Source of the DNA: Schmidtea nova
Lineage: Eukaryota
Assembly: GCA_044892505.1 (NCBI GenBank)
Contig: CM097883.1
Span: 313,472,001-313,536,000, forward strand
Direction: 5' to 3'
DNA length: 64,000 nt
Of this stretch, positions 9,234 to 64,000 are shown one piece after another. Every line of letters begins with the position of its first letter. Within the stretch, counting starts at the first letter, position 1. The position numbers were made by a program, and so were the translations under genes. The notes below the pieces were generated by a model that was given only the letters and a program-made list of their open reading frames with translations, had not been told where the DNA came from and made no database searches.

Positions 9234-9326
9234 TCTCTACAATAATATATACATTCGACTTGTCATTTATTTTTTGATTTTTCTTGTTTTTATTTTTACA
9301 TATTTACAGTTTTCCGCTTTATTTAT

Positions 9327-15800: not shown

Positions 15801-18800
15801 CCTGATAAAATTTAATGTTAAGTTCTGCCGTTTTCCATATTTCCTGCATTCTTTCTTTGAATTTGGTTACGTAGTCGTCATCTTCCATATATTGCGATAA
15901 TGGTGGCTGGTACTCCAAATCTATGGGCATGTTGCATTCTCTGCCATACATAAGTTGAAACGGGCTTAGTTTTGTTGCGGCATGTATCGACATTCGGTAT
16001 GCCATTAAACATAATTTTATGTATTCGTCCCAATCAGTTTGGTGTCTGCTGACATAGTTTGATAACATTCTAATCAATGTGCCATTGAATCGCTCTGTTT
16101 GACCATTCGTTTGTGGATGATATGGTGAAGTTCTCAATTTCGCTATTCTGAAATAGTTTGTCACCTCGTTCAATAACTCACTCATAAAATTAGTTCCTTG
16201 GTCTGTGAGTATTTGTTTTGGAGTTCCATATCTGCAGCATATTTCTTCCACTAGAATTTTTGCTACGGTTTTTGCTTTTTGATCTTGCATGGCAAATGCT
16301 TCCGGGAATTTCGTCAAGTAATCCGTTATTACTAGTATGTAAATGTTTCCGTTTAAGCTTTCTGGTAATGGTCCTATTACGTCCATTGCTATAGTTGTCA
16401 TTGGCTCTGCTGGTATCGGCATTGGTTGTAGCGGGTTCTTCCATTTCTTACCACTATCCTTTCTAGTTGCGCAGGTTAGGCAATTTTTAATCCATTCTTT
16501 TATATCTTCTTCCATTGTTCGCCAATAATATTTCTGTCTCATCCGATTTATTGTCTTTTTCTCTGACATATGACCTCCTAATTTCCCATCGTGGTATTGG
16601 ATCATTATCTCTTTCCTTCTGTTTTCCGGTAAACACATCAGCCTCTTTTCACCGTCTTGTATCAATAACCATCCTTTATTTATTATATATCGATGTTGAT
16701 ATTTTCCTATATGTTCCTTTAATTCTTTATTATCTTTGAATACCTCCATATTTCGAGATGTTAGGAACTCTATGATCTGTCCTAACTCTCTGTCTTCCTG
16801 TTGATCTTTCTTTAACTCACTAAAATCTAAATCCTCTGCTATTAATACACAAATTCGTTGTACATCCGGGTCGGTTAATTCCGGAAATGTCAGTCTGGAC
16901 ATACAGTCTGCATTCGCATTCGCTCGTCCTGATTTAAATTTTATGTCTGGTGAGTACTCCTGTAGCTGCATTGCCCATCGCATTAATCTACTGGAGGTTT
17001 CCTTATGTTGTCCTAACCACACAAGCGGTTGGTGATCTGTGGTTATACAGATGATGTGTCCCCATAATAAATATTTAAAGTGTTTAATTGCTAGTATAAT
17101 TGCTAACGCTTCTCGCTCGGTTACTGAGTAATTTTTCTCATGCTTTTTGAATGTCCGGCTATAATATCCGATTACGCGTTCTTTTCCTTCATCGTCGTAT
17201 TGCCCTAATACTGCTCCTGCTGCATATCCGCTTGCATCCGTTGCAAGTAGGAATGGCTTCTTGAAGTCTGGGTGTACCAATATAGGTGCGGTTATCAGTT
17301 TATCTCTCAATGTTTCAAAGGCTGTTTGCTGTTCATCTCCCCATATGAATGATACATCTTTCTTTACCAGCTCCTGTATAGGTTTTGCTATTCCGGCGTA
17401 ATCTTTTATAAACTTTCTATAATATCCACATAGTCCAAGAAACTCTTGTATCTGGGTTATTGTTTTTGGTACTGGGCATTCTTTTACCTTGTCGATATTT
17501 CTAGGATCCGGTTCTTTTCCTTTTGCTGACACTATATGTCCTAAAAATGTAACCTTTTCTTTTGCCCAATCGCATTTTGATGGCTTGAGTTTTAACTTCC
17601 ATTGTCTAAGCCTAACGAATACATCTCGAATATCCTGTATGTGTTGTTCAAACGTGCTAGAATAAATTAATAAGTCGTCTATGTAGACCATACACTGCTT
17701 TATTCCATGGGTGACGAAATTCATGCATCTCTGAAATGATGCTGGTGCGTTCGTTAATCCAAATGGCATTTTCCGAAATTGATATAAATCTCTCCCGATG
17801 GTAAAGGCAGTTTTCTCTTTATCTTCTTCTTTCATTTTTATTTGCCAATATCCGCTTTTTAGATCTAACGATGTAAAATATGCTGCTCCTTGTAGTGTTA
17901 GTAGCATTTCGTTGATGTCCGGTAATGGGTACGTATCTCGTTTGGTCACCGTATTCAACCTTCGATAATCTATACAGAATCTCTGTGTTCCATCTTTCTT
18001 CTTTACCATTACCACTGGAAATTGCCAGGGTGAACAACTTGGTTCGATTACTTCTGCATCCAACATTTTCTTCACTTCTGCTTCCGCTACTGCTTTCTGT
18101 GCTTCTGCTAATTTGTATGGTCTTAATGCAATTGGTGTTTCGTCGGTTAATGGTATCGTATGTAACGTGACATCACATGTTCCTAGATCTAAATCGGATG
18201 CTGCAAATATATCCTTATACTCCATCAAAAGTTTTTCTAACTGCTTCCTTTGATCTTTATTTAGTAGTTCACTATCAATATTCCAGGTTGGTTCTTTATC
18301 TTTCTCTGCTCCTTCTATTGGTAGTTCGATATCCATCATTGGGGTTAATTTACCTAATCTTTCGTTTTCGTATATTATTTTGTCCTCTTCATCGAAGTTT
18401 ACTACGTTTATTGGGATTTCTCCATCATCGTTTATGTTAACTAGTCCTCTTGCCATTGGCAACGCTTTTCTTTTCTCGAATCTCTTACTTGGTTCGAAAA
18501 TCATATCCCCTTGGATTGTCGGATCTATTTTTACGTAACATATTTTCTCCTTTCTTGCGGGTATTATCATTTGCTTTGAACTTGTCACTTTGGCTTCTAT
18601 CGCGCATATTTGTCCTGTGCGATCCTTTAGTCTCATTGTTCCGAGGTCGATTACAATCTCTTTAAATAATGCTGGCATCAAATCTGTTCCGATGATGCAA
18701 GGTACGCTTAATGCTGGTATAACTGCTACGTATGTATCGATTTCCGTGTTTAAGTGGCGTATTTTTACCCACCATCTTCCTGCTACTTCTACAACTTCTT

Positions 18801-20601: not shown

Positions 20602-22843
20602 CGTCTTCTTCCTGGAATGTCTTTCCTTGAATTTCGTCGAACTGTGCTCCTTGTAGCAGTTGTAGTTGACATTCGTTCACCTTTGGTTTGTATACTAATG
20701 TTGACATTCCCGTTTGACACATGCTCCTGTCGATTTTACACATGGATAACGTTTTCATTTCCCCCGTTGTTGGTTCGAAGAATGCTTCGTAGCTTTTTAG
20801 TTCGACTATATACGTATCTATCACCACTAAGTTGGTTGCGAGTGTTCCGAACATCGGGTAGGTTTCTCCTTGACAATATCCTTCTCCTCCCGTAATCCGT
20901 CCTGCTACATAGTACGTCTGTTGCATCATCATTCCTGGCTTTCCTTTTATCTTGATTTTATCTCTTGTTGTTACTTCTCCATGTTTAAACAGTGCTTCGC
21001 AGTCCTCTCCTTGTAACACGATTGGTTCTCTTTCCGTTCCTGGCATGACAATTGCTGAATAATGTCCTCTCCCGCAGTAGAATGCGAATCTCGTCTTCTG
21101 CACCTTACATTCATTCACCATTGTCTTTATGAGTTCTGCTTCTTGATACACGTGGTACCATTGTTCCTTTTTAATCTTTTGCAACTCTACTGGAGTTGCA
21201 TCTTTGCATTGCTCCGTGCCTCTCAATGAATACTTTTCTCCTAACTTCATTTGGTCGCAATCAAACACTTCGAACGCTGTTGCGCTATCGGTGCTAATCA
21301 TCCATATCAACATCATCATTATTATGGAACTCAAATTCATTGATGACTTCGCGTTTCTTGTTCCTGCTTGTTCTTTTCCTAACTCTTCCAATATTTTTTC
21401 GAATTTCTTTTTCATATTCTTGGCTTGTGTTTTCTTCTGGTTAGCTTTTATAAATGTTTCCCATCCGCCTTTGTTAATGACGTAGGGTTCTATTTCTTTA
21501 GATATAATCTTTGCGGTATTTTTTATGTGTCTTTCCAACGCAGTGGGTTTTGGTCGACCTCTACTCAGTGTTAGTAGGTTGTAGATAGTGTATGCAATGG
21601 CTATTACGTATTTGTTATCTGTTTCCGCTCCTTCTGTCAATTTCTTTATTAACGTAGTGGTTCCTTGCCAGTCTAAATGATTTGACTTCGTCTTTTCTTT
21701 TATGAATTCCGGTAAGGTGGGTGCAATTGCGCTGTGCAATGACTTCGCCTTTTCGCTTATCTCAGTTATGCGCCAGTATTTTTTCAATTCCGGATCAATT
21801 ATTGCCAATATTTCCATTATTGTTTTCGATATCCATTCCTCACCTTGACATATTGGTGTTGTCTCTTTTTCTTTTATCTCCGCGATTTTATTTAATTTCT
21901 TTAAACATACTTCCCATTGATCTTGTCTCTTTTCATCCTTATTTCTGATGACTACATTTGCCGGATCTGTCTTGGGTCTACCTCGAGGTCGTCTATCCAT
22001 TCCTGTACCCGTTTCCACAAATCTTGTTGCTCGTCCGGTTTCTTCCGTAACATCTCTTGGTTCGTTAGCTCTTTCTTCCAACCATCTTTCCATTTCTTGT
22101 GTTAATCGTACATTTTCGACATTCGCTCCTCTTGTTTCGTCTTCCGTCAAATCGTTTACTTCTTCTATTATTATCTCTTCTTCAACTTCTGTTTCTCCGG
22201 TGTTGGTTACTTGTACTGTCGTAGGTAATTCTTGTATTCTTTCGAAAATGTTATCGTCTTTTTCCTTTGTTAGTTCGGTTAATTCTTCTATCATATCGTC
22301 GCTGTCTGTTAAAATTTCGTCCACGTCGTATGGTTGTGGTGGAGTCATTTCTCTATTCCCTCTGGGTGTTGTCTCAGATCGTCTTGAACTTGTCCCTGGC
22401 GTTGGTACTAATTCCATCGGGCTCGGCGTACTTATACTTCCGTGTGGTTTATGGTTTTCTTCTTTACGTTTTAATGGTTGACCTGCTATTGCTTCTACTG
22501 TCAAGGTATTCATGAGATCTAGTTGTGCTGGCGTTATTCCGATTTCCAAACTGTTATCTAATGATCGTCCTTGGTGTTGTAAATGGAATGGTGGTTCGTA
22601 TCTCAATTTCTTTTTAATATCTCGAATTTTTTCTGCTATTCCTACCCACAATTCTTCCTTATCCTTGTTTGGATATATTATTCTTAAATGCACTTTTTGT
22701 GGAATTTCCTGCGAGAATTCTTGATTTCTCCATTTCCTAATTACGTGGTCTAGTTGTTCCGGGCACCACTCGTTAACTCTTTTATATTCTGCGATTGCCT
22801 TTGCCACTTTACGCAAGCATGTTATATCTTCTCCATTAACCAC
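20537..22843 (-). CDS. Polyprotein middle part: ubiquitin-like domain, Bcl-2-like domain, internal signal peptide and glycoprotein N-half
   Basis: HLQHQGRSLDNS resembles ubiquitin RLIFAGKQLEDG. IEPYVINKGGWETF resembles BH2. The hydrophobic stretch SIIMMMLIWMIST is followed by AFEVFDC and a Cys-rich ectodomain. Confidence 0.8.
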   Translation of the reverse strand: MVNGEDITCLRKVAKAIAEYKRVNEWCPEQLDHVIRKWRNQEFSQEIPQKVHLRIIYPNKDKEELWVGIAEKIRDIKKKLRYEPPFHLQHQGRSLDNSLEIGITPAQLDLMNTLTVEAIAGQPLKRKEENHKPHGSISTPSPMELVPTPGTSSRRSETTPRGNREMTPPQPYDVDEILTDSDDMIEELTELTKEKDDNIFERIQELPTTVQVTNTGETEVEEEIIIEEVNDLTEDETRGANVENVRLTQEMERWLEERANEPRDVTEETGRATRFVETGTGMDRRPRGRPKTDPANVVIRNKDEKRQDQWEVCLKKLNKIAEIKEKETTPICQGEEWISKTIMEILAIIDPELKKYWRITEISEKAKSLHSAIAPTLPEFIKEKTKSNHLDWQGTTTLIKKLTEGAETDNKYVIAIAYTIYNLLTLSRGRPKPTALERHIKNTAKIISKEIEPYVINKGGWETFIKANQKKTQAKNMKKKFEKILEELGKEQAGTRNAKSSMNLSSIIMMMLIWMISTDSATAFEVFDCDQMKLGEKYSLRGTEQCKDATPVELQKIKKEQWYHVYQEAELIKTMVNECKVQKTRFAFYCGRGHYSAIVMPGTEREPIVLQGEDCEALFKHGEVTTRDKIKIKGKPGMMMQQTYYVAGRITGGEGYCQGETYPMFGTLATNLVVIDTYIVELKSYEAFFEPTTGEMKTLSMCKIDRSMCQTGMSTLVYKPKVNECQLQLLQGAQFDEIQGKTFQEEDDDDKARAKHLKEALETTETGS

Positions 22844-23190
22844 GAAAAAATCTGCGAGACCTTTTATTATTTTCTCTTACCGTGCGCATTAGTTTTTAAT
22901 ATTTCGACAAATTCTTCCGTTTTTTGCTTTTCCTTTTCTACCCATATAGCCGCTGTTTCTGGTCCATCTAGGTCTATTGGCGTAGCTTTCCTTGTCACCA
23001 TGCAAACCCTTCTCATTTCTGGTTCGCAGTCATCTTCCATTCCTCTTTCATATTCTTCTTCATATTCTCCTTCCTTTGGTACCCAACATTTTTCTTTCTC
23101 GTTCCATTGTTTTTCTACGGGTGTTCGTCTTCGTCTGTTGAGATTGAGTTCCTCTAATACATTTTCCCACTCTGGCCAAATTCGCCAATT

Positions 23191-26100
23191 TCAATAGATG
23201 TCTACTATTTGTTGTAATTTGCGCACAACTTCTTTCCGTCGTTCCCGTTCTCTTTTCTCATCTTTAGCAGTTTCTCTGGGTGTATCGTCCATTCTGATAA
23301 CGTGGATGGTTTGGTGATTATCCCATATACCGATTTTATATAGTCGTCTCTCATCGTGATCCCATAATACATGTTCGTTATATTGTATGATTATGTCGTC
23401 TTCCCATTCGTCTTCTGGTTCTCTTTGCACTAGTGTCTCGTTGATGACATTTATTGATTCTTTAATGGTGCAATCCGCTACTACTTCAATTTCTTTGGTG
23501 TCTTCGTTAGGCAATTCCACTGAAATTTTTAGATCTGTTATTTTCCCTTGTCTGAACATTGTTTTTCCCATTTTTGCGATTAATTTGTCGTGTGAGATTT
23601 GTGACCATCTCGTGTGACTTGTGTCACGTATACACTCAATACATTGTTTCAATTTCTCGTATTCGCTTCTCATTAACTCCTTTCTATGTTTTTTGACTTG
23701 TGGTATGATTTGTTCTATCAGGGAATTTAGATTCTTTCGTAAGACTCGTTCTTTCTCGTATTCTAACCGAGGTTTTATTCTCCTTTCAAAGCACGTGTTT
23801 GCTTCCCTTGCAACTTCTTGTAGGTTCTCTTCTTCCTTCTCATCACATATTGATAACAGAGTTATTTCTCCTGGCCATATACCTGTTTCTACTAAGTGCG
23901 TTCTTTTCTTTACGAGTCTATTCTGCGAATAGATGAATTTGTTTTTATATGAGCTCCCTAGTCTATCCTCTACCCATCTGTAGATATCGTCTGTAAATGG
24001 AGTTTTGATCCAGATTCTTGGTGTAGATGTATTTATTATTATTGAGATGGTGTAATTGAGGAGTGGTTCCTCTATCAATTTCCCTACGTATCGATTTAAC
24101 ATGTCCACTTCCCGGTCTTGTAACCATTCTCTGTAGTTCATTTGTAATAATGCTTTCATGAATTTCCGATATTGTTTCTTGTCCATGAATTCTTCGTTAT
24201 ATATTACTTCTAGCGAGTTATCTAGTAATTTCTGGATTTCATCTACTTTTATCTGTGTAGGTTCTGAGGTCTTTATTACTTCTCTCTCTTTATTTTCGTC
24301 TTCGGATTCGTTTAATATGTCTCCTGCTAGGCTACTGATGTCGCTATCTTCTTCCTCATCGGAAAATTCTCTGGCGGTATTTCTTAACATATTAATATGT
24401 GCTATTTGGTTCGTTTCTCCTTGTATATTCTTCGTTGGTTCTGGTTCGTTTTTGTCAATCTCTGGTGTTGGTTCACTCTTGTCCTCTATTACTTCGACTT
24501 TTCTCATTTTCTTCTCCAACTCGTCTATCTCTTTCAAACGTCTTCTTATCATTTTTCCTTTAAATATTCGACTGATTCGGGTTTCGTGACGCACTGGTGG
24601 TGGAATTTCTCCTGGTTCTATTTCTTTGATTCTCATCACATTTCTTTTTGTCTCTGTTACTCCCATGTTTTCCCATATATCCGTTAATTTCAATTTTACT
24701 GATGGTGCATCTCTTATTTGTAAGAACGCTTCTCTGGGCAGTTTCGTTACTCCTGGAATCATCTGGTTTACTTTATTGAATAGTATTTCCACCTTTTCTT
24801 TTGCGTTATATTGGAATCGAAACACATGGTCGTTGGGCATGATTATCATCATTCCTTTTTTCCAAATTTTTCTTCTCTCTTCTTGGTTTATCTCAGTTTC
24901 CGCTTCCTTTTCTACTTCTTTTTCTACTTCCTCATCTTTTTGTACTATTTCTTTTCCACTTTCGTTGTCGGCTGGATTCATTTCTAGTGTGGTTTCTTTT
25001 TCGCGAGTATCTGTTTGGTTTATTGCTCTTAGCATGTTGATTCTTAGAGGTTGTCGCTCTCTTTCTTGTTGTTTTTGTTCGTCTTCTCTTTGTATTCTTG
25101 CCCATTCCTGAGCGTGTCGTGCTTGACTTTCTCGATTCAATCGTTCGTTTTCGCTTTCTATTTTTCTCATCATGCTAATTTGTTGTTGGTTGGTTTGCGG
25201 ATTCCCTCTCGTCGTATTGTTTATAAGTTCCGTCAACCGTTGAACTTCTTGCATCAAATGTATTTCTTTGGTGGTAGTTTTGTTCTGATTATTGTTATTA
25301 TTGGCTTGTTGGTTTCCATAATCTTGTCGATTTACGGTATTTGCTTGGTTTCCGTAATTTGGTCGGTTTCCGTTGTTCTGCCAATTTCCTCGTTGATTAC
25401 CTTTTTGTCCGCAATTCCTTGAGTAGTGACCAGGTCGTCCGCAATTAAAACAGATTATCGTAGAACATCTACTCTCCGAGTGTCCTTTAACTCCACATTT
25501 TCCGCAATTCAAATTTTGATAGCATTCTTGCTGCCAATGTCCCAATTTTCCACATGTTTTACATTGTTTTGTTTGTCTTTGAGGGTTGTAATTGTTTTGG
25601 CTTTCAAAGTTCTGCACTTTATTTCCTTCATTCCTTCGTTGAGGGGGTGGTCGGTTTAATTGTTGCGAATTTGGAATGTGATTGTTAAGATTTACTTCTG
25701 GTTCGATTTGCGCCGTGTCCATGGCTAAATAAATTCTACCCTCACTTCCTATCATATGCAATTCAAATCGGTTAGCTGTTTCTAACGCTTGATCTATGGT
25801 TTTGCATCCTTGGCATCCAACTTGCGCTCTTATGTCGGGTCTTCTTAATCCTCCTATGAAGATGGCTGCCATTAATTCCTCGTTTATTGGACCCCCATCC
25901 TTGAATACCGATTTTGCTAATTTTTTCAGTTCGCTTGCGTATACCGCATTAGATTCATTCATCTTTTGTTTCCTCATTGAGAATTCTATGAATGCCTCGC
26001 TTAGCACTTTATTTATTCCAAATGTTTGTTGAAAAAAATCCTTTATCGCTGGCCAGTCTGCAGGTGGATTGGTACCATTCTTTGCTTCCAAATATAGGTC

Positions 26101-26706
26101 CAATGCACTATCTTTCAAATATAACTGTATTCTACTTGCTGTTGTCTCAGCTTTCCATTTGCATACTTCCACGAATATGCCAAATTCTTTTAGAAAAATT
26201 TCCAATTTACTCGCATCTCCGTTAAACGGTTCTCCTGAAAATTTATCCTTTATTTCTTCTCTTGGTTCACCCATTTCAATTCCGCTGTCTTGAGTTATTT
26301 TACTTTCGTTCCCTCTTGTTTCTAGTTCGTTGTTATGTTCGTCTTCTGTTTTACTCGAGCTTGAATCGCTTTCTGTTTCTCTTATTACTTCGCTATCTGA
26401 TATTATACTTTCGTTATCACTCTCGTTGGTTTCAACCTCTGGTTCTACCTCGTTTTCTACTTCTTCGATATTATCGTTGTTAATTTCGTCGCTTTCTATT
26501 TCGCTTGTTTGGTTCTCCTTGGGTTCTGCTTGGTTTTCTTTGTTACTTGAGCTGTTGCTTACTACTGACAATTTATCGTTTTCGATAATTGATTTATCTC
26601 TTATTATTTTCCTCGCTTTACTCCCTTGTGGGTTTTTGTGGTTATCTTTGCCGGCTTTCTGCTTTTTTGTTGGCTTTATTGCGACACTCTTTGCTCCTTT
26701 TCTCAA
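23191..26706 (-). CDS. gag: Polyprotein 5' part: Gag (capsid plus three CCHC knuckles) with a ~600-aa extension containing two ubiquitin-like domains
   Basis: Capsid-like FSGEPFNGDASKLEIFLKEF and RKQKMNES; CKTCGKLGHWQQEC, CGKCGVKGHSESRC, CFNCGRPGHYSRNC. The frame stays open for ~105 codons beyond the TGA at 23191. Confidence 0.92.
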   Translation of the reverse strand: MRKGAKSVAIKPTKKQKAGKDNHKNPQGSKARKIIRDKSIIENDKLSVVSNSSSNKENQAEPKENQTSEIESDEINNDNIEEVENEVEPEVETNESDNESIISDSEVIRETESDSSSSKTEDEHNNELETRGNESKITQDSGIEMGEPREEIKDKFSGEPFNGDASKLEIFLKEFGIFVEVCKWKAETTASRIQLYLKDSALDLYLEAKNGTNPPADWPAIKDFFQQTFGINKVLSEAFIEFSMRKQKMNESNAVYASELKKLAKSVFKDGGPINEELMAAIFIGGLRRPDIRAQVGCQGCKTIDQALETANRFELHMIGSEGRIYLAMDTAQIEPEVNLNNHIPNSQQLNRPPPQRRNEGNKVQNFESQNNYNPQRQTKQCKTCGKLGHWQQECYQNLNCGKCGVKGHSESRCSTIICFNCGRPGHYSRNCGQKGNQRGNWQNNGNRPNYGNQANTVNRQDYGNQQANNNNNQNKTTTKEIHLMQEVQRLTELINNTTRGNPQTNQQQISMMRKIESENERLNRESQARHAQEWARIQREDEQKQQERERQPLRINMLRAINQTDTREKETTLEMNPADNESGKEIVQKDEEVEKEVEKEAETEINQEERRKIWKKGMMIIMPNDHVFRFQYNAKEKVEILFNKVNQMIPGVTKLPREAFLQIRDAPSVKLKLTDIWENMGVTETKRNVMRIKEIEPGEIPPPVRHETRISRIFKGKMIRRRLKEIDELEKKMRKVEVIEDKSEPTPEIDKNEPEPTKNIQGETNQIAHINMLRNTAREFSDEEEDSDISSLAGDILNESEDENKEREVIKTSEPTQIKVDEIQKLLDNSLEVIYNEEFMDKKQYRKFMKALLQMNYREWLQDREVDMLNRYVGKLIEEPLLNYTISIIINTSTPRIWIKTPFTDDIYRWVEDRLGSSYKNKFIYSQNRLVKKRTHLVETGIWPGEITLLSICDEKEEENLQEVAREANTCFERRIKPRLEYEKERVLRKNLNSLIEQIIPQVKKHRKELMRSEYEKLKQCIECIRDTSHTRWSQISHDKLIAKMGKTMFRQGKITDLKISVELPNEDTKEIEVVADCTIKESINVINETLVQREPEDEWEDDIIIQYNEHVLWDHDERRLYKIGIWDNHQTIHVIRMDDTPRETAKDEKRERERRKEVVRKLQQIVDIY

Positions 26707-27316
26707 CTGGATTACTTTTATATTATCAATTTTCTTGTCCTATCTATTATCGTTTTTCTGATTCTTCTTGTTGCTTGATTGATTTGATTGATTTGTATAT
26801 CTAAAATACAAAGGTCCTCAACGATACCTTATTGTTATCGTCGCGCTTTTATTCCCTTTCTTTCGGGATTACTTATTACTGGGTTTTCATTATATCCCCA
26901 TTCCCAGATTCCCCTTTATTTTTAGTCTATTTAAATTATCTATAGACTGGTCACAATTATCTATTTATGTCGTAATAATTATCTATGTTTTATCAAATCC
27001 ATTACTTTTCCCACAGTTTCCCAATTTATTGGTCGCTCGAGCGCTCTAATTCCCTGAGTCTTTCTGACTCGTTTATCATTATTTTATCATTCCTATTCAT
27101 TATTCCCTGATAGCAATCGTTTTACTCATTCTGCCGGTTGCTCCGGTCAGCTCGAATTTTTATTATTCTCCTTGCATGCTTTACTTAAGGTTGCATAATC
27201 AGCTTTACTCGCATTTCTTAACTACTAGTGCGCACTATTCTAAATCTCGTCGACGATTACACTATGGGTCTATATTCCCTCTGTTACTATTTATCCGGAT
27301 ATCTCTATAATCCACT

Positions 27317-27628
27317 ATGGCTCTTTTGGCCTCAATTTTATATCTCACATGGCTCTATTGGCCTCATTTTACTATCTCAAATGGCTCTATTGGCCTCAAT
27401 TTAATATCTCACATGGCTCTATTGGCCTTAATTTAATATCTCACATGGCTCTATTGGCCTTAATTTTATATCTCACATGGCTCTATTGGCCTCATTTTAC
27501 TATCTCAAATGGCTCTATTGGCCTCAATTTAATATCTCACATGGCTCTATTGGCCTTAATTTAATATCTCACATGGCTCTATTGGCCTTAATTTAATATC
27601 TCACTGGCTCTATTGGCCTCAAATTAAT
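27317..27628. repeat. Tandem array of ten ~32-bp units (ATGGCTCTATTGGCCTCAATTTAATATCTCAC) upstream of gag
   Basis: Unit starts at about 27317, 27349, 27381 and so on to 27604. Variant pattern shows a 128-bp higher-order duplication. Confidence 0.95.
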
Positions 27629-28220
27629 CTCTCCATAACGCCTAGCTAGGTCATTCAATAAGGCTCGTTGGCCTCAACCCTTTTTTTCAAGGGACAAACC
27701 GCTGATAACCCTTTGTTTCAAGGGACAAATCTCGTATAACTTTATAACTTTACTTAACCGGTTAATCACAATTCTTAACTTCGCTAGCGATTAAAATTTC
27801 TCAGCTGAGCTATAACTACTTCTATGCGAGCTGACTATGCACCTTTTATTCTCTCAAAAATGTCATTTATCTCTCTATTCTATCATAACTATTTCCTGAT
27901 CAGTCTGCTTTAACTTTTTATTTTTTTTTTCTTATGCGCGCTTTACTCCATCAAGATTTCCCTATCTCTCTCCCCAACCACAATATACAAAAAGATCGCG
28001 TTGGTCCATTAGTGCAGGATGTGGTGATCAATCACATCACAAAAACTTTCCAACATTTGCGATGGGCCCCTTTCTATATACTTGACTAGGTTGATCAATT
28101 GGTACCCCTCAATGGATTCTTATCGGACTACTTTGTAGTAGCTCAAAAAAATTATTTAAATACAATGATTGTTCCCATGATTCACCATTCGACATTTTAC
28201 TAATTAACTCTAAACATTTA

Positions 28221-28682
28221 TTACAAATAAACTATAATTTTTTCATTCACGGTAAAGTTGCACATCGGACACCGGTCACACTTGTTGGCACAGATCTTAC
28301 AAAAACGGAAATGTCCACAAGGTAAAAACATAATTTGTATCTCGTTGTTTTCACATATATAGCACTGTCGGTATTTTTTCGCTGCTTCTACCCCTTGCGC
28401 CCTCCATCGATTGTATGCTGGGGTCAATTGTTGTTCCATCTGTCTGCATCTAATGTTCAGCTCCGCATTCTCTAGTCGTGCTTGGTACCATTTGTAGCGG
28501 GTTTTTATGTCGATTTTACTTGTTCTTTCTGTTATCTTTATTAATTCATCTGTTTCTTCGGTCTGTGTTGTGGGTTCTTGAAATTCAATTTCTCTAAATC
28601 GGTTTATTTTCTTGCCAATTGTTGCTAATGTTTCGTTTTCTGTGCTGAGAAATTCTTCGATTTCTTTCAGTTTTTCCTCCAT
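28221..28682 (-). CDS. 153-aa protein with a C-terminal IAP/Mdm2-type RING finger, between the PBS and gag
   Basis: CYICENNEIQIMFLPCGHFRFCKICANKCDRCPMCNFTVNEKIIVYL at the extreme C-terminus, the hallmark layout of IAP-type RINGs. No BIR domain. Confidence 0.85.
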   Translation of the reverse strand: MEEKLKEIEEFLSTENETLATIGKKINRFREIEFQEPTTQTEETDELIKITERTSKIDIKTRYKWYQARLENAELNIRCRQMEQQLTPAYNRWRAQGVEAAKKYRQCYICENNEIQIMFLPCGHFRFCKICANKCDRCPMCNFTVNEKIIVYL

Positions 28683-29037
28683 TTGCTGAATAAATAATCG
28701 TTTTAACTTTGTGGTTTTTATCGTTTTAAAGTGGTAATATGTCTCGTTTTGTGTCTTTTAATATTTATTTAAAGTAGTAATATGTTTCGTTTTGCATCTT
28801 TTAGCATTTATTTACTCTCCCCGTGTTTCCGAAAATTGTCGTCCCGACAAATTATTTATGCATGCATTCGATTTTTATAACTTTACTTTTATTTGTTGTT
28901 GTGTTTGTTGTTTATCTTGTACATCATTTAGATTTAATTACCAATTTTCTGTTTTTATTAAATTTATTCACACGACACGAGCACTTTAAACTTCTCTGCA
29001 GATTTTTCATTCACATTTTACCGATAAAACGAAGTTG

Positions 29038-29055
29038 ATCCCGGCTGAGCCCCCA
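29038..29055 (-). promoter_or_regulatory. Primer-binding site, tRNA-Pro type
   Basis: TGGGGGCTCAGCCGGGAT, 6 nt inside the 5' LTR; two differences from the classic MLV Pro PBS TGGGGGCTCGTCCGGGAT. Confidence 0.9.
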
Positions 29056-29061
29056 AATTTA

Positions 29062-32000
29062 TGCTGGGTTCATGGACGGTTTGGTGAAAATTCGAATGAT
29101 TGCTAGGGATCTCCCATCCATGATCATGCATAAATAGTCGTAAGCTACACTCGAGCGCCCTTGATTATTTCCCCTGATAACCAAGTTGGTGATGCGCAGG
29201 GTGATTAAACAATGAGGGGCAGGTGAGCACTATTGCTAGGACTACTCCCCCTTTATGTTTACGGGTTCACGCGGCCGTAGAAGGACTTACGCAATTATTG
29301 TTCTATTTTGTGTGTGTGAGGCTATGTATTTATCAAAAAACAAAACAAGCAAGCAAAACCAAACTACGAATTTGATAATATTTAAGTTCTTTATCGCTAC
29401 TCCTTTCGTTGTGTGCCGGGTAATTGAAATTTAATTATGAATTATCTAATCGAAGGAAATACAAAAGAAACAACAACAACAAAACAAAAACGAGCAAAGA
29501 TTTAATTGACTCCCAAATCGGACATCGTATTCTATCTGTTATAGAAATTCTTTGAAAATTCCTTCTGGAGGGAATATCTCGGATAACCACTCGGCCTCCG
29601 ACATTTCTGCCATAGTGGTTACTTGTGTCTGCAATTGTTGAGAAAACAACTTTCTTTGGCGACGGCGCTTGGAGCCGATTCGTTTCCGCTTATTCGTTTT
29701 TCCGACGGGGTTTGGTATAGTGGTGGTTTCCACCCGACTCTGCACTGTGGTTGCCTCGAGTCCATCGGTGTCCGTACTGATTGAGCAGGCCATTTTCTGT
29801 TCCCCTACCCAATTCTGGTAAGTAATGGGTCGGATTTGTGCTTTCAATTCGGTCTCGATAAATGAAGTCGTCACCGAATGGAGACATCGGCGCAACTCAA
29901 TTTTTGTTGCTTCCCATTCGGTGCGATAATCGTCAGCTGTCTTTTGAGCCCTTTCTGTCCGACTCATTTGCTCCTTCATGCGAGCTGGTGCGAACCAGCT
30001 GGTCCGTAAATGCTGAATCTGAGCTTCTGCTTTGGCTCGTAAGGCTTTTTCTTGGTTTAGCTCTTTTTCCAATGCTCGGCGGATTCTCCACGCCTTGTCC
30101 AATTCTCGCTGCTGGCTAGTTTCCGTCATACTAAATAACAAACCCAATTTATAATGCATCAAACATGTTACCAAGATTAATATTATCCGTTGAGTGTAAA
30201 AATCATATGATTAAATAAATAGAAATAAATTTAACTAAGAACAAACAAAACACGGATCAACACCATTTAATTTATTGAAATCGTTTAGTTTATAAAATGT
30301 GAATATAATGTTTAGTGGAAAACACTTCGCTTGAGGCCGTGAACGGGAGTAATATGCAACCCGTGATTGACTGGATTTCTTCGGATGTGAGCCATCGAAC
30401 AGTTTAGTTTGGGGCGTCCGTGGCACGTTTTCGGTAGGTGATTTGGAATCAACCCGAAATTAAGCAACCTGAGCGGTGAGACATATCCCCAATGGATCAC
30501 TGTCGTTGGATTTCCTTCACTGTCTGACACCACTATGATGAACAGAGCTGTCGTCTCCCGGTCTCTTTCGTCCTGAATTTCCCATCCGGGGCCTCCTCGA
30601 TATACGATGGTATCCAATCCACCGGCCCAAATCGAAAATGGGCATTTCTTTCCTAGTTCCCTTCTCCATTTATACATCAACGCATTTAGCGTTCTGAGGA
30701 GTTCCTGTGGAAGCGACTTCAATTTCTTCCGGTGCGTCCGGATTAGAGGATTTTCGACCCGTGCCACATGACGTTGAGTTGTTAGAAATTCATCCAGTAT
30801 CGTTGATTTCATCTGAGAAAACAATAATGCTAATAGAATTTACTGTGATAAATCCGTAAATTTTGGTGAGACCTGATAAAAAGTGCTCTGCTCGTTGATC
30901 AATAACACAAAAAAAATGTGAAAAGGAGGAAAAAAAATATTTTTCAAACTATTCAATTAACACCGTCGCTATGTACAGCGATCGGAATATTAAAAATTTA
31001 CCTATTATTACCTGCGCTATGTACAGCGATCAGGTTACGATTTTATTTATTTAATCAGTAGTGTCGATCTGAATATGTCGTTATTTATGTCTAAATTAAA
31101 CTGTAGTTGAAACGTCGAAATCGTCTCGGTGTGTCTGGACGTGATTTCGATCAGCTATGTTGGTTCACAAAAATTTGCGTGCATATGAAAAAAATCGATC
31201 TAGTCGACCTGATAATTGATATTATAGTTTGTTTTCGCCTGTCTGATCGAATGTAAATGTTAACCACTGTCTACAAATTTTACTCGTGTCCTTGTCCCTG
31301 CACAACTTTACCGTACCGTGAAGCTTCCGATAAAATAAAATTAAATAAAGAATACCAATAAAAACTCTGCTCACCATCTTGTGGAACGGTGAAATCCCAC
31401 ATTTACGGCTTGCTCCCTCGCAGCGTAAGCTACTGAGGAAGTATATTTATTAGATCATAAAATAATGGCATAAGAAAAATAGAGTAATAGTAATAAATTA
31501 TATTAAATGAAAATAAAACAAATGGGAATCATGAAACATATCATAAAAATCAATGCAAAATACAATACAAAAAAATTTACTGTTTAAATCCACGATGCAG
31601 TGTTTTCCAAAAATTTACACAGTCTTTATCGTATCAAAGTTGACTATGATAAATCAGTTCGGTAGCTAAGTTTTTTGGCGTTTTTTTGTATGATTTTTGG
31701 ATCGGTATTTATACTGATCCAGTTGGTCAGATTGACCAATCAGGATCAGGCCGTCCATCAAAGTAATTTTGTTATTTTATTTTAATATAAACCATTTTAA
31801 ATTTCCGGTTCAGATTTCTCGCTGGGTGGTCTCGATTTTTTCAAGTAATTAACCAATTAATTGTACTTTTATTTGATTTTATTGGTAATTTTCTTATTTC
31901 AGACCCCCATACTGCTCGTTCTTGTGTCAATTTGATTTTCTTCCTTTGCTGGAAATTTAGTAATTATTATTTATTATTTTATTTTAATTTTTAATTTAGG

Positions 32001-32090
32001 TTTTCGAATGTTTTTGTGGTTATTATTTGTATTTATTGTTCAAATTAGTACAATATTTTTGCCTTTTTAGACCAATTGGTGGGCCCAACA
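29062..32090 (-). repeat. 5' LTR of the giant element (3029 bp)
   Basis: Direct repeat of 2794-5822, adjacent to the PBS. Confidence 0.97.
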
Positions 32091-40739: not shown

Positions 40740-41736
40740 TTTTGGTGGATATCCTTTCGGACACAGAGTGGCCCCCTTTTTTATTATTTCGAATTAACAA
40801 TTTTTTATTTTAAATAATTAAGATAATATAAATTTTTAAAAAAAACAAAAAAAATCGATTGACAAATAAATTGCTAAGGAAAGAAACAGATTGATAACTA
40901 TATAAATTGTTAAGTAAAATAATATTACAAATTGACAAGAAAACAAAGATTTCAAATTACCTAAAAAATGAAATTACCGAAAAGTAAACCAATTAGCGAA
41001 AAATTAACTGATTATCAATTTATCAAACTATTAAATCTCCAAAGAACTGAAAGGAAAACTATACAAATAGTCAATTAAAGAAATTAATTCAAATTGTCAA
41101 CCAAAAAAAAATTTCAAAATTATATTTTGCTCGAAAATCAAAGAAAAGCCTGTATAAAATAAATTTCCTTTATTGAGGACATTTTCTGTGTTTTAATCTG
41201 AGCATACATGAGTATCTGTTTATTTTATTAGTGTTAAATAAAATTTTTTAATATTATAGTTTTAAGTTGGTTGTTTATTAATATATTCTGTGCAAACACA
41301 AGCACGCAAACACACCATCATATTATCAATATAACATTCACCCCAGCAGTCCCGAAACATTTTCTTTCAAGAGACTTTGATGGGCTCTAAAAATCTTTCT
41401 TTCATAAAATATAGCTACATAAATATCTTTCCAAACAAAAATCCACTCAATATAAGTAAAAACGGATTACCCACTATTATTAGCGTTAGCTAACAGTTTC
41501 TATTTACAATTATTTATTCTTTGATGAAATATTAATAATAATAATGTGACTGAAAATTAAAGTTTGCTACAGTGATTAACTGGTGGGCTGCCTTCATAAC
41601 GAAGACGAATCAACAATAAATTTACGATTAATTTATTTATAAATACATCATATATAAATTAATAGATTTCAGTTAATCCATTTTTATTTCCATTCTCTTG
41701 GATTTATGCTTATATTGGACTGTCGCTTCCTCTCGT

Positions 41737-43288
41737 TCATAAGTTAGGCCGTTGTAAGATATGGTCTAACTGACTTCGATGGATGAATTTGCTTTTCTTT
41801 TCCTGTAATTTAATTCCAACGTAAGTTGAAGTTTTACCATAATCAAACTTGCTACTGTCTTCAATCTTTCTCCCGTTGGTTCTATCATTATTTCCGTTGA
41901 CCCAACTGAGTTCAGTAGAAGGAACTTCTATCTCTGCTATTATTATGTCTTCATTTATCAAGTCAATTTCTTCCATAGCAGTTTTCTCCGGGACTTGTGC
42001 CAACTTTTGCGACCTGGTTTCCTCAGTTGGTTTAAATGTATAAGCATGTAAATTTTTATATTCATTCAGAGAATATTTCTTTTGCGACTGTTTCCTGGGA
42101 ATCACTATGTCATCGATCAATTTATTTTCTACTCAAAAATATATTTTTTGAATGATTTTCACATCCTCTAGAGCAGAATCTATTCCGACCTGAGTTTCCT
42201 CCCCACACATTTCCCGTGCTACTGTTTGTAGTTTAAACAAATCTCCTTTTCTGGTTACATTCATCCTTTGAAGTATTTGGGCAGCTGCTAGATCTCGTAT
42301 TCCATACACTTGGTCTGTCCATATTCCCAGATGGTGTATTTCGGCATGTAAATCATGACCAATTAATATTTTCCCCACCGTAATCTCTGGATATCCTTCA
42401 TTTCCTAATATTGATCGTGTTGATTCCTGATGGCTACTTCGGTAATCCCATGGATCCTTGAATTAAAGTGACGAATGTTTCCTCTTGGGGTCAAATATAC
42501 ATCTTTGACTATTTTCCATGATAATTCATCATAGCTACTGATAGTGGAATCATTTTTCTTGTTTCTGAACTGGCATTCATTTCCAAATATTGATCATGTT
42601 TATTCCTGCTGGCCACTTTGATAATCCCATGGATCCTTGAATTGAAGTGACGAATGTTTCCTCTTGGGGTCTAATATACATTTTTGACTATTTTTCCATG
42701 ATAATTCATCATTGCTACTGATAGTGGAATCATTTTATTGTTTCTGAACTGGCATACTCTCCGTCAACGAATAGTATTCTGTTCCAAATTTTCTCGATAT
42801 CCATTTCCCTCCTAACAAACGACACTTTTCGTTTCAACATCTCTTCCGAGATATTAATCAATGTTGCATTATGGCTCTCCATTGGCTGCATACATGGTCT
42901 CATTTGGCTCATTTGCTGTTCTTGTTTCCAAATCAATAAGAGTCTCTTCGTTCGCTACATTAATGTGTTTTACCATAATTTCCTTTTGAATTTTCCAAGA
43001 TGATAATTTCTTTAATTCCATTCACGGTTGATTCCAATCCATTATTTCCACTGTCTCTTTGATGATATGAAGGTAATATTTTTTTGCTGGATATTTGACC
43101 TTCATCAGTTAATTTCATCCCGATATTCCGATGTTGTTTAAGCATCTTCATATTCATCTTCAGTCATCTATTTTCAAATAATTTGATGTTTGTAAATTTT
43201 CGTTTATTTGAAATTTTTACCCTGAATGATTCCTTTGAAATTTTGCGTAGCTGCCGTATGTTGCCCTTGTCCATTGAATTTGCTCCAT
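41737..43288 (-). pseudogene. Decayed ISG20/REX4-like DEDDh exonuclease accessory gene, copy 1, with an internal ~180-bp duplication
   Basis: RILFVDGEY, HGITKV, GKILIGHDL, IRDLA and SALEDV motifs across several frames. Start MEQIQWTR is homologous to the start at 60485. Confidence 0.75.
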
Positions 43289-43340
43289 TTCTTACTAAAA
43301 TATTTACGATTAACGTTTTATCAATTTAATTTTGAAGCTA

Positions 43341-59043: not shown

Positions 59044-60485
59044 TTAATCCATTTTGATTTCCAGCCGCTTTGCTCCATGTCGATATCTGATAATTGTTAC
59101 TTCCTTTTCGTACACCACACCATTGATGGTCAGTGTTTCCCCAACGTCGACATCAGATGTTGTAGATTTTCTTTTGCGTTCCTCCTTCCGTTCCATTGGG
59201 TCATACTCCATCGATAATTTAATTCTCGCCGACTTGATGGATTCAATCAATCCTCCATTCTCTTCAATTTCCTCCAAATACGTTTCAGTTGCCCATTTCA
59301 ACTTTTGATTCCTCATTTCTGTCCTCGTATCACTCTCCTCCACTTCCATGCATGTCTCATCTGCTATTAGTACTGTCCTTTCTGAGCTGGGAATTTCGGA
59401 TGTCGATTCTATATAGTACATGGCTTGATATTCTTGTAAGGAATATTTTTTTGACGGTCCTATCTTGGGCATTGATATATCGTCGATCCAAATACTTTCG
59501 AGTCCCAGATATATCTTCCGAATACTTTTAACGTCCTCCAAAGCTGAGTGTATATGCATTTGCATCTCCTCTCCATATAGTTTCTTCATTACAGTTTTGA
59601 GCTTATACCACTCTCATCTTCTTGTTACTCCTTTCAATTGCAAAGCTTGGGCTGTAGCTAGATCTCGGATGCCATAAAGATGGTTAACCCATATCCCTAA
59701 GAATTATAACTCTGCATGTAGGTCGTGTCCTACTAGTATTTTCCCAATAGCCAGTTTTTGAATTTCTTTCATTTCTTCATACTGGTCCTTTTGGTTTCGG
59801 CTCACCACCTCCGTTATCCCATGGATGTTTGAATGGAAATGTTTGAGTCTTCCTCTGGGAGTTAAGAACACATTTTTTACAATTTTTCCATGATAATTCA
59901 TAATGGCCACGGCCAAGGGAATCATTTTTCCAGTCTTGCTGCTTCCATATTCGACATAAATGAACAATATTCTATTGCGAATTTCTTCTATATCCATTTT
60001 CTTCCGAATAAACGAAAGTTTCCTCTTCAACATTTCATTTGTTATTTGTAGGAGTTCAGGAATTTCTTTCTGCATTGGCTCCTTGCTGGGTGCGTCATCA
60101 ATTTCGTTTTTTATCCTTGTTTCCACTACAATTGTGGCATCCTCGTTCGCTGCTCATAATATTTTTCCAATTGCTGGCTCCTTGATTTTCCGCGAAGAAA
60201 GTCTTTCGATTTCCCACCATATTTGATCATTTTCGTCTAGCATTTCCACTGTCCCTTTGATTACGTGGATATGGTATTCCTCTTTGTTTGATATTTTTAA
60301 TTCCTTTGTTATTTGGAATTTCTGTTGATAGTGAATAATTGGACTTTCATTTTTCTGTCATCCAACCTTAGGTAATTTGAGATTTGTAAGTTGTTGACCA
60401 TCTGGAATTTCCTTTGGCCGGCATGATTTCTCATCATCTTCAGATAACTGTCGTACGTTTCCCTGGTCCATTGTAGCTGTTCCAT
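59044..60485 (-). pseudogene. Decayed ISG20/REX4-like DEDDh exonuclease accessory gene, copy 2
   Basis: RILFIYVEY, IHGITEV, GKILVGHDLHAEL, GIRDLATA and HIHSALEDVKSIRKIY motifs; stops and a frameshift are present. Confidence 0.8.
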
Positions 60486-60779
60486 CTTTTGCTAAATGTT
60501 TATAATTTTAAATTTGATTTAATTTAATTTTGACGCTAGGACTAAGATAGAGTAGCCAAAGGATACTGTCTTAGTAGGTAGTGGTATAAATAAAAATATA
60601 AAATTACCGATTGATATTTTCTTAGTTCTTTAAAAGTTTAATTTTGTTTAAAATTGTTTTAAGTTTTATGATGTCTAAGTTTGTCTTATATACCCCTTTT
60701 TTGATTGTTCGATCCCTTTTTCTACCCCCTCACTTTCTTAGTATTAACCAATCAAATCAATTTCTCAATTTTCCCATAC

Positions 60780-63070
60780 CGAAGAGTGCAAATTTTTCTG
60801 ATATTAGCATGGGTGCTACTAAATTTGGGTTTGTAACTGCCATCGCCATTCGATTTCGGAGTATTTATTTATTCAATTTACAATCGTTCAAGCTCATTTC
60901 TTTATATATGTTCTCCATGGTATTTTGGCTAAAATGAAATAAATAATCAATTTTATTATTAAAATAATGAGTTAGTTTTATATCATCCCTGTGAATTCTC
61001 GTTTTCGCTTCATGTACAATCGTTTTTGCTACATATACTCCTTTGTAATTTGTTACATAGACTGTTTGACCACATTTGCTCGTAATCTCCTTTTTAATAA
61101 AGCGCATGCTGTCCGTTGGCAAGGTTGACATTAAAACCGTGGCTGTTTGTCTTGTCCAGAAAGGAGTTGACCTGACTGTGCCATTCTATTTATAATTTAT
61201 GTTAAAGTTGTTTGGTCTATCCCTAAATTGCTCTCTGGTTAACTCTTTGAAATTCATTATTTTTAAATGAGCTAGGTTTCATATATTGGTTTTAACATCG
61301 TAAACGAGAATTGCCTCTCCCGTGTGACAACTAGTTTGCTTCATATTACAAAATGGATGAGTTTGTAGTTTTCCGGTATCATCATCAAAAGATCCTTCGA
61401 ACATTCTCAATTCTGTTAAGTATTCCTCTATTACCACTGTGTGTTTAATTACTTTCTCATTTATTTTATACGGTTCACCTTCACAGTCACCGTCTGATTT
61501 CATCACTCCCTTCACAGCTAACGTTTCTCGAATTTGATGATTTAATTTCGCTTTTAATCGAATTTCAGGACTGATTTTTAATTCCCCCGTTTGAAAGGTT
61601 GTTAAACAATTTTCCGGCAATACATCCACCGGTCGTGGAATGGCGTGCATTCTTTTAATGACGTATGGCTCCATTTACTACAGAAGAATACAAAAGTGGT
61701 TTGTTTTACAATGCATTCTTTAACTTTGGTACGCCGTAAATCTGACTCTTGATACACATGGTATTTTACTTCGTTTTCAATCCTCAATTTTCGAGGGTAT
61801 GCGTCTGGGCACTCTGCCATATCGACCACTGAGTAAATTTTCCCCATTTCTGTTTGTGAACAATCATATGCCACTAATGACGTTGTTTGCGCAATAACTG
61901 CACATAAAATAATCATCATTAACATTACCCAAGGGAATATCATCGTTTTCCTCAGTTTTGGACTTACTCTTTCATTCAATTGCCTTTCGGGTGAATCCTG
62001 ACCTTCTGGTTTCCTTCTTTTCTTTATTATCGATAAATTTAATGCCTTCCACCCTCCAAACTCTCTTAACCAATTTGTTAAAGACTCATTTAATAGTCGA
62101 GCCGCAATGTCAAATAAATTAACAAGCTTGTCTGACTTTGTAAATGCATGAATACCGATCTCTGAAACAACGTAGGTTAGGATTGTTAGCACTATTTCTT
62201 TATCGATCCCATTTTTACTCAAATTTTCTACTACTTCTCGTTTACAAAAGTTTCCTCTTTGCCAAAAATCCGAACTACTTCTGGAAGTCTGGTTTTCACT
62301 TCCTCTACTATTCCTTTCAATTCCTTTTCCGTTTCTGTCTCTATTTTTAGAACTGGGTATACCACTTTAACTAAATTTCTTATTACATCACTTGTTTCAT
62401 CAACTTCCCGCTCTAACTTTATTAAACTTTTCTTCATCTCATATAATGTTCTAGGTTTCTTATTCTCATCTTTAATTTCTTCTTTTTCGATATTCGTATC
62501 CTCGATAACTGTCGTTTCTGCTATCTGAGCATTATTAATCCTCTTTCTACTATGATCATCAGTAACTATTTCAATTTCGCTTCCTTTTATTTCTTCCGCT
62601 TGTTCGTCTGTATCTGAAAATTCAGCTTGATCAAACGTTCTCGAATTGAATTCTTTATTTGCTATTATTCGATTTATTAAATATCCCTGACTTTCATTAG
62701 TGCTTAAATACCCATATTCGTCTAGTTCTTGGGGCACACATCCGCAGTAATATAAATATTCATCGTCATCAAGTTCTTCACCTTTATATCTCAACACTAT
62801 AATTCCATCTTTTCCTAACATTTCCTCTTTTTACGCTCTCTTACGCACTTTTTGAACTTTCGTACACCAGTGTTCCTCTACATACTCAGTTTTCCTAATG
62901 TCTTCATATTCTATTGCAATTGTCAGCGAATTTATTGCAACTCGATCCTTCCTACGCTCTTTACCCAACTTTCTCAATATTCCTTTTAAAATTTTTCTGT
63001 ATCCAGTCCTCCTAAACAAATATGGTCGTATCACATCAACAATTTCTATTTTTTCTTTTTCCCCAAATTC
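60780..63070 (-). pseudogene. Polyprotein remnant of a sister giant element: ubiquitin-like, Bcl-2-like, signal peptide and glycoprotein
   Basis: IVLRYKGEELDDDEYLYYCG (UBL-like), LTNWLREFGGWKAL (BH2), LVAYDC, and YFNNKIDYLF...NDCKLNK, collinear with 19600-22700. Confidence 0.85.
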
Positions 63071-63091
63071 AGATTCATTAAACCCGAGTGA

Positions 63092-63500
63092 TGTGGGAAA
63101 CCCGGGGCATCAAGAAAATCATTTAATTATCTAATTAAATTGAATGCCCCGGGAAGAGCCGAAAAACCATTAGCGGTGAAACTCAATTAGGCGGCGGTCA
63201 AACAAATTAAATTATTTTATTTTCGACAGATCCAATTAAGCCGACAAGATGACAACAAAAAGTAGTATTTAAACGGAGAGCAAATTGCCGATATCGCCAA
63301 AGGTGGTTGAAGATAAATTTCAAGCACAAATGGAACTCGTCAAACAACTACAAGCTATTTGGAGGAAGCGTGTAGAGAAAACCAAAGGAAAAATTTGAAT
63401 TTAATCTTCTTGCGTGCCAGAGAGGGAGATATCCCATTGGGTGTTCTACCCTCACGCGGAAGAGTGCAGAGCATTAGTAGCTTTCTGTGATAAAAAGTTT
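63092..63500 (+). repeat. Possible LTR start of a related element; right boundary unknown
   Basis: CCCGAGTGA-TGTGGG junction matches the giant element's internal/3'LTR junction, and the sequence becomes GC-richer from here. Confidence 0.35.
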
Positions 63501-64000
63501 TCTTGTTCCTTTGAAAAATAATATAAAGTTATTGTGTTGGGTTTCATTTATTTTCGTGGTTGAAAGAGAACACAGGAGTCAGATATTACCGACTACACAT
63601 TAATAGCCCAACAATTTTATTTAAAAACGTGGCCTTTTGTGGTCGCATTAATTATTGGTATGTAGAGGTTGTGTTAGGATTGATATAAAAATGAGGAAAA
63701 CATCGTTAAAAACATTAAAATATTTAACGTACAAAAATTAATTAAAATATTATAAAAATCAAAAATTAATATTTTCCGGGGGAAACAGACATGTGTTTAG
63801 CAAAAGCTGAGATTTGTTTAAATGGCGCGGTATTAAAACATGTAGAGAGCGCGAGTGTATATGTAAAAAACACATATACAACGTGAAAACATCAATTGTG
63901 TAATAGAATAGCACATTGTGAAAAATTAGCATCTTTTCGGGAGGAAATTTTCTAATTGTAATGTAAAAATCCAAAAAATACGAAAGAAAATTGTTTTAGT

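Follow-up and report, generated by a model that had tools for sequence, protein, structure and literature searches.

The 64,000-nucleotide (nt) stretch of Schmidtea nova DNA analyzed in this work (contig CM097883.1; hereafter the window) contains, on its minus strand, a decayed and internally deleted piece of a giant Burro-like Gypsy retrotransposon, accompanied by a broken two-domain cargo gene whose intact relatives would likely protect their element by degrading the RNAs used by the host to sense or silence it. We give this interpretation as a whole an even chance of being correct. According to fold predictions, the intact relatives would combine an iron-free AlkB/cupin-like fold with a 3'-5' exonuclease of the ISG20/REX4 type. 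Members of this family lie directly behind a Burro-like pol gene on a metagenomic locus (L001), and therefore the family is very probably cargo of Burro-like retroelements.

The decayed fragment and its exonuclease gene

Between 63.08 and 60.79 kb the minus strand encodes a decayed polyprotein of a Burro-like giant Gypsy element. The remnant of its env gene, which specified a mononegavirus-type fusion glycoprotein, matches the Pfam family Monjiviricetes_fusion (PF24664) in three pieces (E 1.7e-12, 4.1e-7 and 8.5e-8) and is 27-49% identical (tblastn) to the env of an intact Burro-like element present in the same window, in which env precedes the protease (PR). An earlier note, made from the letters of this DNA, had read the fragment as a polyprotein of ubiquitin-like (UBL), Bcl-2-like, signal and glycoprotein parts, collinear with the intact element. 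The glycoprotein and the signal stretch indeed align with that element, but the UBL and Bcl-2 stretches give no tblastn alignment to it, and their own matches are weak; in particular, the Bcl-2-like stretch hits chains of the Bcl-2 family in 37 of 49 rows of a phmmer search, all sub-threshold (E 0.19-1.6). The stretches that precede env in the intact element yield a similarly sub-threshold phmmer match to Bcl-xL (E 0.9-1.9) and none for UBL. Collinearity thus rests on env and on the order of the domains. The loss of pol postulated in the earlier note was borne out, as tblastn finds no pol between the env remnant and the exonuclease gene; the rest of env is missing too, and the fragment possesses neither gag, nor pol, nor long terminal repeats (LTRs) of its own.

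The exonuclease gene begins on the same strand about 300 nt past the end of env, with a start codon at 60485 in another frame. It is interrupted by one frameshift near 60.3 kb, which splits the N-terminal domain, and by three in-frame stops at 60156, 59706 and 59616. Translated with X at the stops, it matches Pfam RNase_T (PF00929) with an E-value of 1.4e-6, above the cut-off, and its best match in the PDB is human ISG20 (E 4.7e-6). The GHDL, IRD and HSALED motifs, from which a stand-alone DEDDh exonuclease gene had been predicted, are present; the gene is nevertheless broken, and inspection of the D-E-D-D-H residues went against an intact site, as the first metal-binding position lacks an acidic residue. 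The third acidic position is Glu (DEED type). Judged by its reading frame and active site, the window copy is a pseudogene, and it would be unable to perform the proposed RNA degradation. The polyprotein remnant has accumulated 6 breaks in 2.3 kb and the cargo gene 4 in 1.44 kb: the env remnant and the exonuclease gene are equally decayed, and they stand on the same strand and in the same order as on L001. TATA-like and CCAAT-like boxes, located by eye at 60685-60755 on the minus strand, some 200-270 nt ahead of the start codon of the cargo gene, may represent an internal promoter.

The earlier note had overlooked a second copy of the cargo gene, which is more decayed and has an internal duplication of 179 nt, as well as the N-terminal domain; the family profile recovers both window copies. 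Just upstream of the second copy lies a DNA transposon (43327-45725) with 75-nt inverted ends, which carries what we take to be Tc1/mariner-like transposase motifs. The sequence is multi-copy: the window has two copies of the cargo gene, and 2,724-3,767 contigs per run cover 30 of 30 bins in all four runs of one study, and the same four runs cover both env and cargo with many distinct contigs.

On its outer side the fragment is bordered by a repeat that opens, at 63.08 kb, with a 12-mer identical to the junction between the polypurine tract and the LTR of the intact element. This 12-mer, noticed post hoc, occurs twice in the window against 0.002 expected occurrences. The summed contig depth reaches 11,000-23,000 at 63050-63637, compared to 400-4,500 over the fragment (depth being no copy number). 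Beyond the junction 12-mer, the repeat (63092-64000) shows no alignment to the intact LTR; from the junction and the depth we infer that it is probably an LTR of a Burro-family element.

Family relationships, genomic linkage and predicted folds

A search with the intact relative P0002 returned 1045 library matches, of which the best 150 were examined. The tree of the nuclease domain was calculated for 147 of 168 proteins (15 with fewer than 130 domain residues and 6 near-duplicates were dropped); it is unrooted and contains no named references. The tree sets 70 sequences, the window copy among them, apart from all others with a support of 0.995, the others comprising 74 host-like sequences of the REX4 type and 3 family members that branch between. 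The family thus forms a clade separate from host REX4, ISG20 and AEN, which speaks against orthology with them. Among its 73 members, 25 have a DEEDh site, 20 a DEDDh site, 17 an altered and 11 an incomplete one, so that the catalytic site is intact in 45 of the 62 complete members, always with His in the third motif; the complete host-like sequences have DEDDh without exception (64 of 64). The intact members are probably active RNA exonucleases. Divergence in the family is 20-45%, none of the 20 protein clusters checked has an informative name, and no relatives were found in viral contigs or in contigs of prokaryote genomes. One subclade with long branches consists of catalytically dead members (P0063, P0149, P0099, P0100, P0066, P0132 and others) that have kept the N-terminal domain.

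A scan of metagenomes yielded 4 loci from 239 pattern matches. One of them, L001 (11.5 kb), encodes a protease, reverse transcriptase, RNase H and integrase (PR-RT-RH-IN) along with ankyrin repeats and another match to a protease. Over 1160 amino acids (aa), the pol of L001 shares 43.6% identity with that of the intact element, compared to 33.9% with that of an ordinary Gypsy element at 36-38 kb of the window, and the ankyrin parts of L001 and the intact element align as well (E 1e-7). Two family members follow this pol after 173 and 299 nt, with profile scores of 148 and 307 bits: a catalytically dead one, then an intact DEDDh one; behind them lies an open reading frame (ORF) whose match to ubiquitin is weak. 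L001 and L002 represent one element (99.9%), and L003 contains the tail of a dead-type member followed by an intact member (E 1e-10). L004 was set aside, as it carries a host-type REX4-like gene. The dead member of L001 occupies 7268-8743, in tandem before the intact one, and the same arrangement is seen on L003. The ubiquitin match of L001 (E 0.041) lies at the end of ORF 10906-11518, in which a helical stretch, recognized by eye, presumably resembles the TFIIS N-terminal domain. Short GC-rich motifs stand behind the stop codons of the exonuclease-family genes on L001 (8767-8958, as a 100-nt direct repeat), on L003 (about 400-440, a similar motif) and in the window (58840-58990); Rfam at E 1 gave no match in 56-64 kb, L001 or L003.

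The cargo of L001 stands where TRAF is found in the intact element. The earlier note had proposed a conserved core with swappable cargo, and the comparison agrees: a TRAF/MATH protein and a coiled-coil protein in the intact element are replaced by two exonuclease-family genes and a ubiquitin-like ORF on L001. Modular cargo has already been described for Burro elements (PMC6431247).

The structural model of the relative P0017 (mean predicted local distance difference test score, pLDDT, 68.5) superimposes on ISG20 (1wlj) with a Z value of 21.0 and a root mean square deviation (rmsd) of 1.9 over 160 aligned residues, ahead of Pan2 (Z 16.4), SDN1 (15.1), DnaQ (15.0) and nsp14 (10.5), while its first 145 residues match proteins of the AlkB family. 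The ESM Atlas places the full protein among RNase T/ISG20 clusters; for the N-terminal domain it gave no usable match, its own model of that domain being poor. A separate model was built, from an alignment of 57 rows, for residues 1-134 of P0011, which is closely related to the window copy. This model of the N-terminal 135 residues reached a pLDDT of 94.2 and resembles ALKBH6 (Z 9.6, rmsd 4.8, 132 aligned), ALKBH1 (9.5), E. coli AlkB (8.7), the N-terminal domain of vaccinia C16 (7.9) and cupins (up to 7.9). All 50 rows of the fold search are, by their titles, 2-oxoglutarate (2OG) oxygenases, cupins or their kin, with 13 chains at Z values of at least 8, and Foldseek gives E-values of 1e-4 to 1e-3. 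The N-terminal domain is accordingly predicted to be an AlkB/cupin-like double-stranded beta-helix; the Z values of the model are middling and leave both AlkB and cupins as conceivable ancestors. The domain lacks a Pfam family; PilZN, suggested by one member (7.7e-5), is unsupported by the fold search.

The domain does not look like an AlkB-type enzyme. By alignment and strand order rather than by coordinates, an HxD/E/H motif in residues 50-72 is combined with a His in residues 106-116 in only 1 of 57 members, and the alignment shows no conserved Arg of the 2OG-binding kind in the last strand; an active AlkB demethylase was rejected because the iron triad is missing. Instead, a His and a Glu/Asp, each conserved in 53 of 57 members and probably on neighbouring strands, are kept also in members with a dead nuclease. 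The domain, found in 64 of the 168 proteins, none of them host-like, presumably serves as a binding module. Vaccinia C16 is an iron-free viral immune antagonist.

Table 1. Positions of the described features in the window
Feature	Position	Strand	Basis or remark
Intact Burro-like element (comparison)	2794..32090	-	29.3 kb
Second, more decayed cargo-gene copy	41631..43340	-	62-64% nucleotide identity to first
Broken cargo gene: double-stranded beta-helix, DEDDh-family exonuclease, acidic linker, short C-terminal tail	59044..60485	-	
ISG20/REX4-type exonuclease domain, DEED-type third acidic position	59506..59970	-	
N-terminal AlkB/cupin-like domain (predicted), approximate limits	60110..60485	-	tblastn of P0011 and P0162 in two frames
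Putative splice-acceptor-like site (T-rich, then AG)	60486..60500	-	6 nt before start codon
env (mononegavirus-type fusion glycoprotein) remnant, cut near 60.79 kb	60790..61883	-	Pfam, tblastn
Hydrophobic signal/transmembrane stretch before env	61884..61952	-	tblastx, 28% over 57 aa to intact element
Possible Bcl-2-like domain (weak)	62040..62260	-	phmmer; position agrees with published Burro architecture
Possible ubiquitin-like domain (weak)	62672..62850	-	phmmer, E 0.37 and 3.2
High-copy repeat, likely Burro-family LTR with 9 nt of polypurine-tract side	63083..64000	+	12-mer, contig depth

Possible functions and competing explanations

We favor counter-defence as the function of the intact genes, a candidate about as apt to prove right as wrong, because the exonuclease is optional and fast-diverging, is joined to a putative targeting domain, is accompanied by dead paralogues and by co-cargo of the anti-apoptotic and ubiquitin-signalling kinds, and belongs to elements targeted by Piwi-interacting RNAs (piRNAs). 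Burro elements are indeed piRNA targets (PMC8532177), Burro cargo of other kinds acts on apoptosis and ubiquitin signalling (PMC6431247), and the arenavirus ExoN, a domain of the DEDDh family, suppresses innate signalling (PMC7968707). In the proposed mechanism the beta-helix domain would bind RNA or a host partner and aim the nuclease, the catalytically dead paralogues would act as binding partners or decoys, and the substrate would be either host defence RNA (piRNAs, small interfering RNAs or precursors of these) or immunostimulatory RNA from the element itself.

The cargo genes may be translated from subgenomic mRNAs, generated by cis-splicing or by spliced-leader trans-splicing at acceptors before their start codons. 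Among 13 cargo ORFs, taken from the intact element, the two copies of the window, L001 and L003, 10 have a T-rich stretch and a YAG at most 8 nt from the start, compared to 165 of 622 background ATGs (p ~2e-4); the ORFs without an acceptor-like site are one LTR ORF, the dead member of L001 and a short ORF of L003. The spacing of the cargo ORFs is 93-132 nt in the intact element and 173-549 nt on L001 and L003. Such subgenomic mRNAs would explain both the acceptor sites and the spacing. The layout of these ORFs in the intact element, L001 and L003 is operon-like, and flatworms resolve operons by spliced-leader trans-splicing (PMC12582326). It is tempting to imagine a complete anti-silencing system, in which an AlkB-derived, iron-free reader of modified or protein-bound small RNAs feeds the fused ISG20-like exonuclease, the dead tandem paralogue serves as partner or decoy, and the operon is resolved by the host spliced-leader machinery; we regard this extended version as rather unlikely.

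The main rival to counter-defence is processing of the element's own RNA, in which the same cargo would serve the life cycle by trimming the 3' ends of genomic or subgenomic RNA, the tRNA primer or reverse-transcription intermediates. Enzymes of the REX4/ISG20L2 type trim structured RNAs (according to PDB titles), the same role was proposed for the DEDDy ORF3 of rotifer retroelements (PMC5408684), and many tandem cargo ORFs need 3' end formation. We nonetheless consider this role unlikely, if still a serious contender, as the intact 29.3-kb sister element with identical LTRs lacks the gene, and the many dead paralogues and the 20-45% divergence suit conflict better than housekeeping. The same intact giant element contradicts a proofreading exonuclease for the reverse transcription of a 30-kb genome, parallel to the nidovirus ExoN. 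Such a role might be expected from the size of Burro elements (~30 kb) and from the DEED pattern in 25 of 45 intact members, a pattern that coronavirus ExoN also has. ExoN proofreading has moreover been tied to the growth of nidovirus genomes (PMC7968707). However, the predicted fold is far nearer to ISG20 than to DnaQ or nsp14, and DEED occurs also in the cargo of small rotifer elements (PMC5408684), which makes proofreading very unlikely.

Other explanations concern the origin of the gene rather than its function. In the window it may belong to a different element or family and have reached its place beside the env fragment through nesting or rearrangement: env breaks off some 300 nt short of the gene, 8 contigs of run X4 diverge from the window sequence at 60794, the LTR-like repeat next to the fragment has the opposite orientation, and the second copy has no adjoining env, its upstream side being cut by the DNA transposon. 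The common strand, expected order and equal decay of the two parts, together with the position of the family behind a Burro-like pol on L001, render such a junction decidedly unlikely. A processed pseudogene or an expanded family of a host REX4/ISG20 gene, located among repeats by chance, would agree with ISG20 as the closest solved structure and with other likely retro-copies of host genes in the window (L6-like, proteasome-like); yet the separate clade, the N-terminal domain absent from all host-like proteins and the direct linkage to pol, by which this origin is already largely refuted, leave it extremely unlikely.

Several observations weigh against the counter-defence interpretation and the cargo model on which it builds. 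The recently inserted intact element does without the exonuclease gene. Catalytic residues are lost in 17 of the 62 complete family members, hence nuclease activity is not needed across the whole family, and for the rotifer DEDDy ORF3 no clear link to copy number was reported (PMC5408684). The linkage between pol and exonuclease comes from one independent element, L001, whose cargo falls in another subclade, with 34% identity to the window copy over 209 aa. Neither in the window nor on any of the loci was the exonuclease gene seen between paired LTRs, L001 ending before an LTR, and the LTR-like repeat at 63.08 kb runs opposite to the fragment; were it an LTR, its wrong orientation would suggest an inversion or a second insertion. 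None of the contigs listed bridges the env/cargo junction, which may therefore be a private rearrangement. Finally, the acceptor test was post hoc and included homologous genes.

The intact element, its surroundings and related systems

The window is AT-rich animal DNA. The intact element it contains has LTRs of 3029 nt that are 100% identical to each other, and is flanked by a 4-nt target-site duplication. Its ORFs encode a RING protein, gag with CCHC zinc knuckles, the mononegavirus-type fusion glycoprotein, PR-RT-RNase H-integrase and ankyrin repeats; behind pol follow a 129-codon ORF, the TRAF/MATH protein and the coiled-coil protein. The family profile finds no match in 2794-32090, in agreement with the statement of the earlier note that this element has no exonuclease gene. 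The LTRs themselves contain two ORFs of 175 and 223 codons; gag, Bcl-2-like/env and env/pol occupy three separate frames; and the ankyrin repeats are followed by about 1600 residues of repeated Cys/Trp-rich, membrane-anchored sequence that has no Pfam name. Elsewhere in the window we observed an ordinary Gypsy element of 4.6 kb (34602-39172) with very short (106-nt) terminal repeats that are 99% identical, and a plastin/fimbrin gene with a long open exon (47097-49062), of which an inverted fragment, 87% identical, lies at 1-355; its best named relatives are flatworm proteins (52-55% identity, without resolving the order). The ORF at 58150-58740 partially matches ribosomal protein L6e (E 2e-8) at a contig depth of 6,500-12,000 and is apparently a host gene fragment carried in a high-copy repeat.

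The architecture of the intact element is that of the planarian Burro elements (Burro1/GYPSM1, Burro2-4; PMC6431247), to which it was likened by the published description. They share a size of ~30 kb, gag-CCHC, a mononegavirus-type env between gag and PR, PR-RT-RH-IN, and further the ankyrin repeats and the MATH/TRAF and RING accessory ORFs. Unlike the family described here, the Burro cargo in the available text of that paper includes no exonuclease or cupin/AlkB-like protein. A precedent is the DEDDy ORF3 of bdelloid rotifers (Juno/Vesta LTR elements and Terminons; PMC5408684), likewise a stand-alone 3'-5' exonuclease ORF behind pol, with family-specific presence and with DEDD changed to DEED. 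However, ORF3 is RNase D-like, whereas the family analyzed here belongs to the DEDDh ISG20/REX4 group and has the extra beta-helix domain and tandem dead paralogues. Its exonuclease fold and motifs are common to ISG20, ISG20L2 and REX4 (REXO4), and within the superfamily ISG20, REX4 and PAN2 cluster together (PMC3985635); it differs from these enzymes in its separate clade, in having Glu as the third acidic residue in 25 of the 45 intact members, in the N-terminal beta-helix, and in being mobile and multi-copy. With the AlkB-family 2OG-Fe(II) dioxygenases, cupins and C16 it shares the predicted fold of the N-terminal domain, but not a conserved HxD...H triad. The ExoN domains of arenavirus NP and nidovirus nsp14 are also DEDDh-family exonucleases, serving immune evasion or proofreading (PMC7968707), but they represent another structural subgroup (Z 10.5 for nsp14 against 21.0 for ISG20) and are found in RNA viruses, not in a retroelement. 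The literature covered, which was without the main Burro papers, Repbase/Dfam and supplements, holds no report of DEDDh or cupin/beta-helix-exonuclease cargo in Burro elements. Exonuclease cargo of LTR elements is already known from rotifers; the version combining DEDDh with the beta-helix may be new.

No larger LTR retrotransposons than the Burro elements are known, and a recent report credits one of their cargo proteins, an inhibitor of apoptosis protein (IAP), with protecting planarian stem cells (cited in PMC13465017). A class of RNA-directed cargo would extend the Burro toolkit from the control of cell death to RNA metabolism. The window copy itself is a fossil. The fusion of beta-helix and DEDDh domains has dozens of intact natural members, and the family is a candidate, open to direct testing, for a suppressor of small-RNA silencing that transposons encode. 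In the extended, rather unlikely version described above, these retrotransposons would equip a regenerating animal's stem cells with a nuclease that destroys piRNAs.

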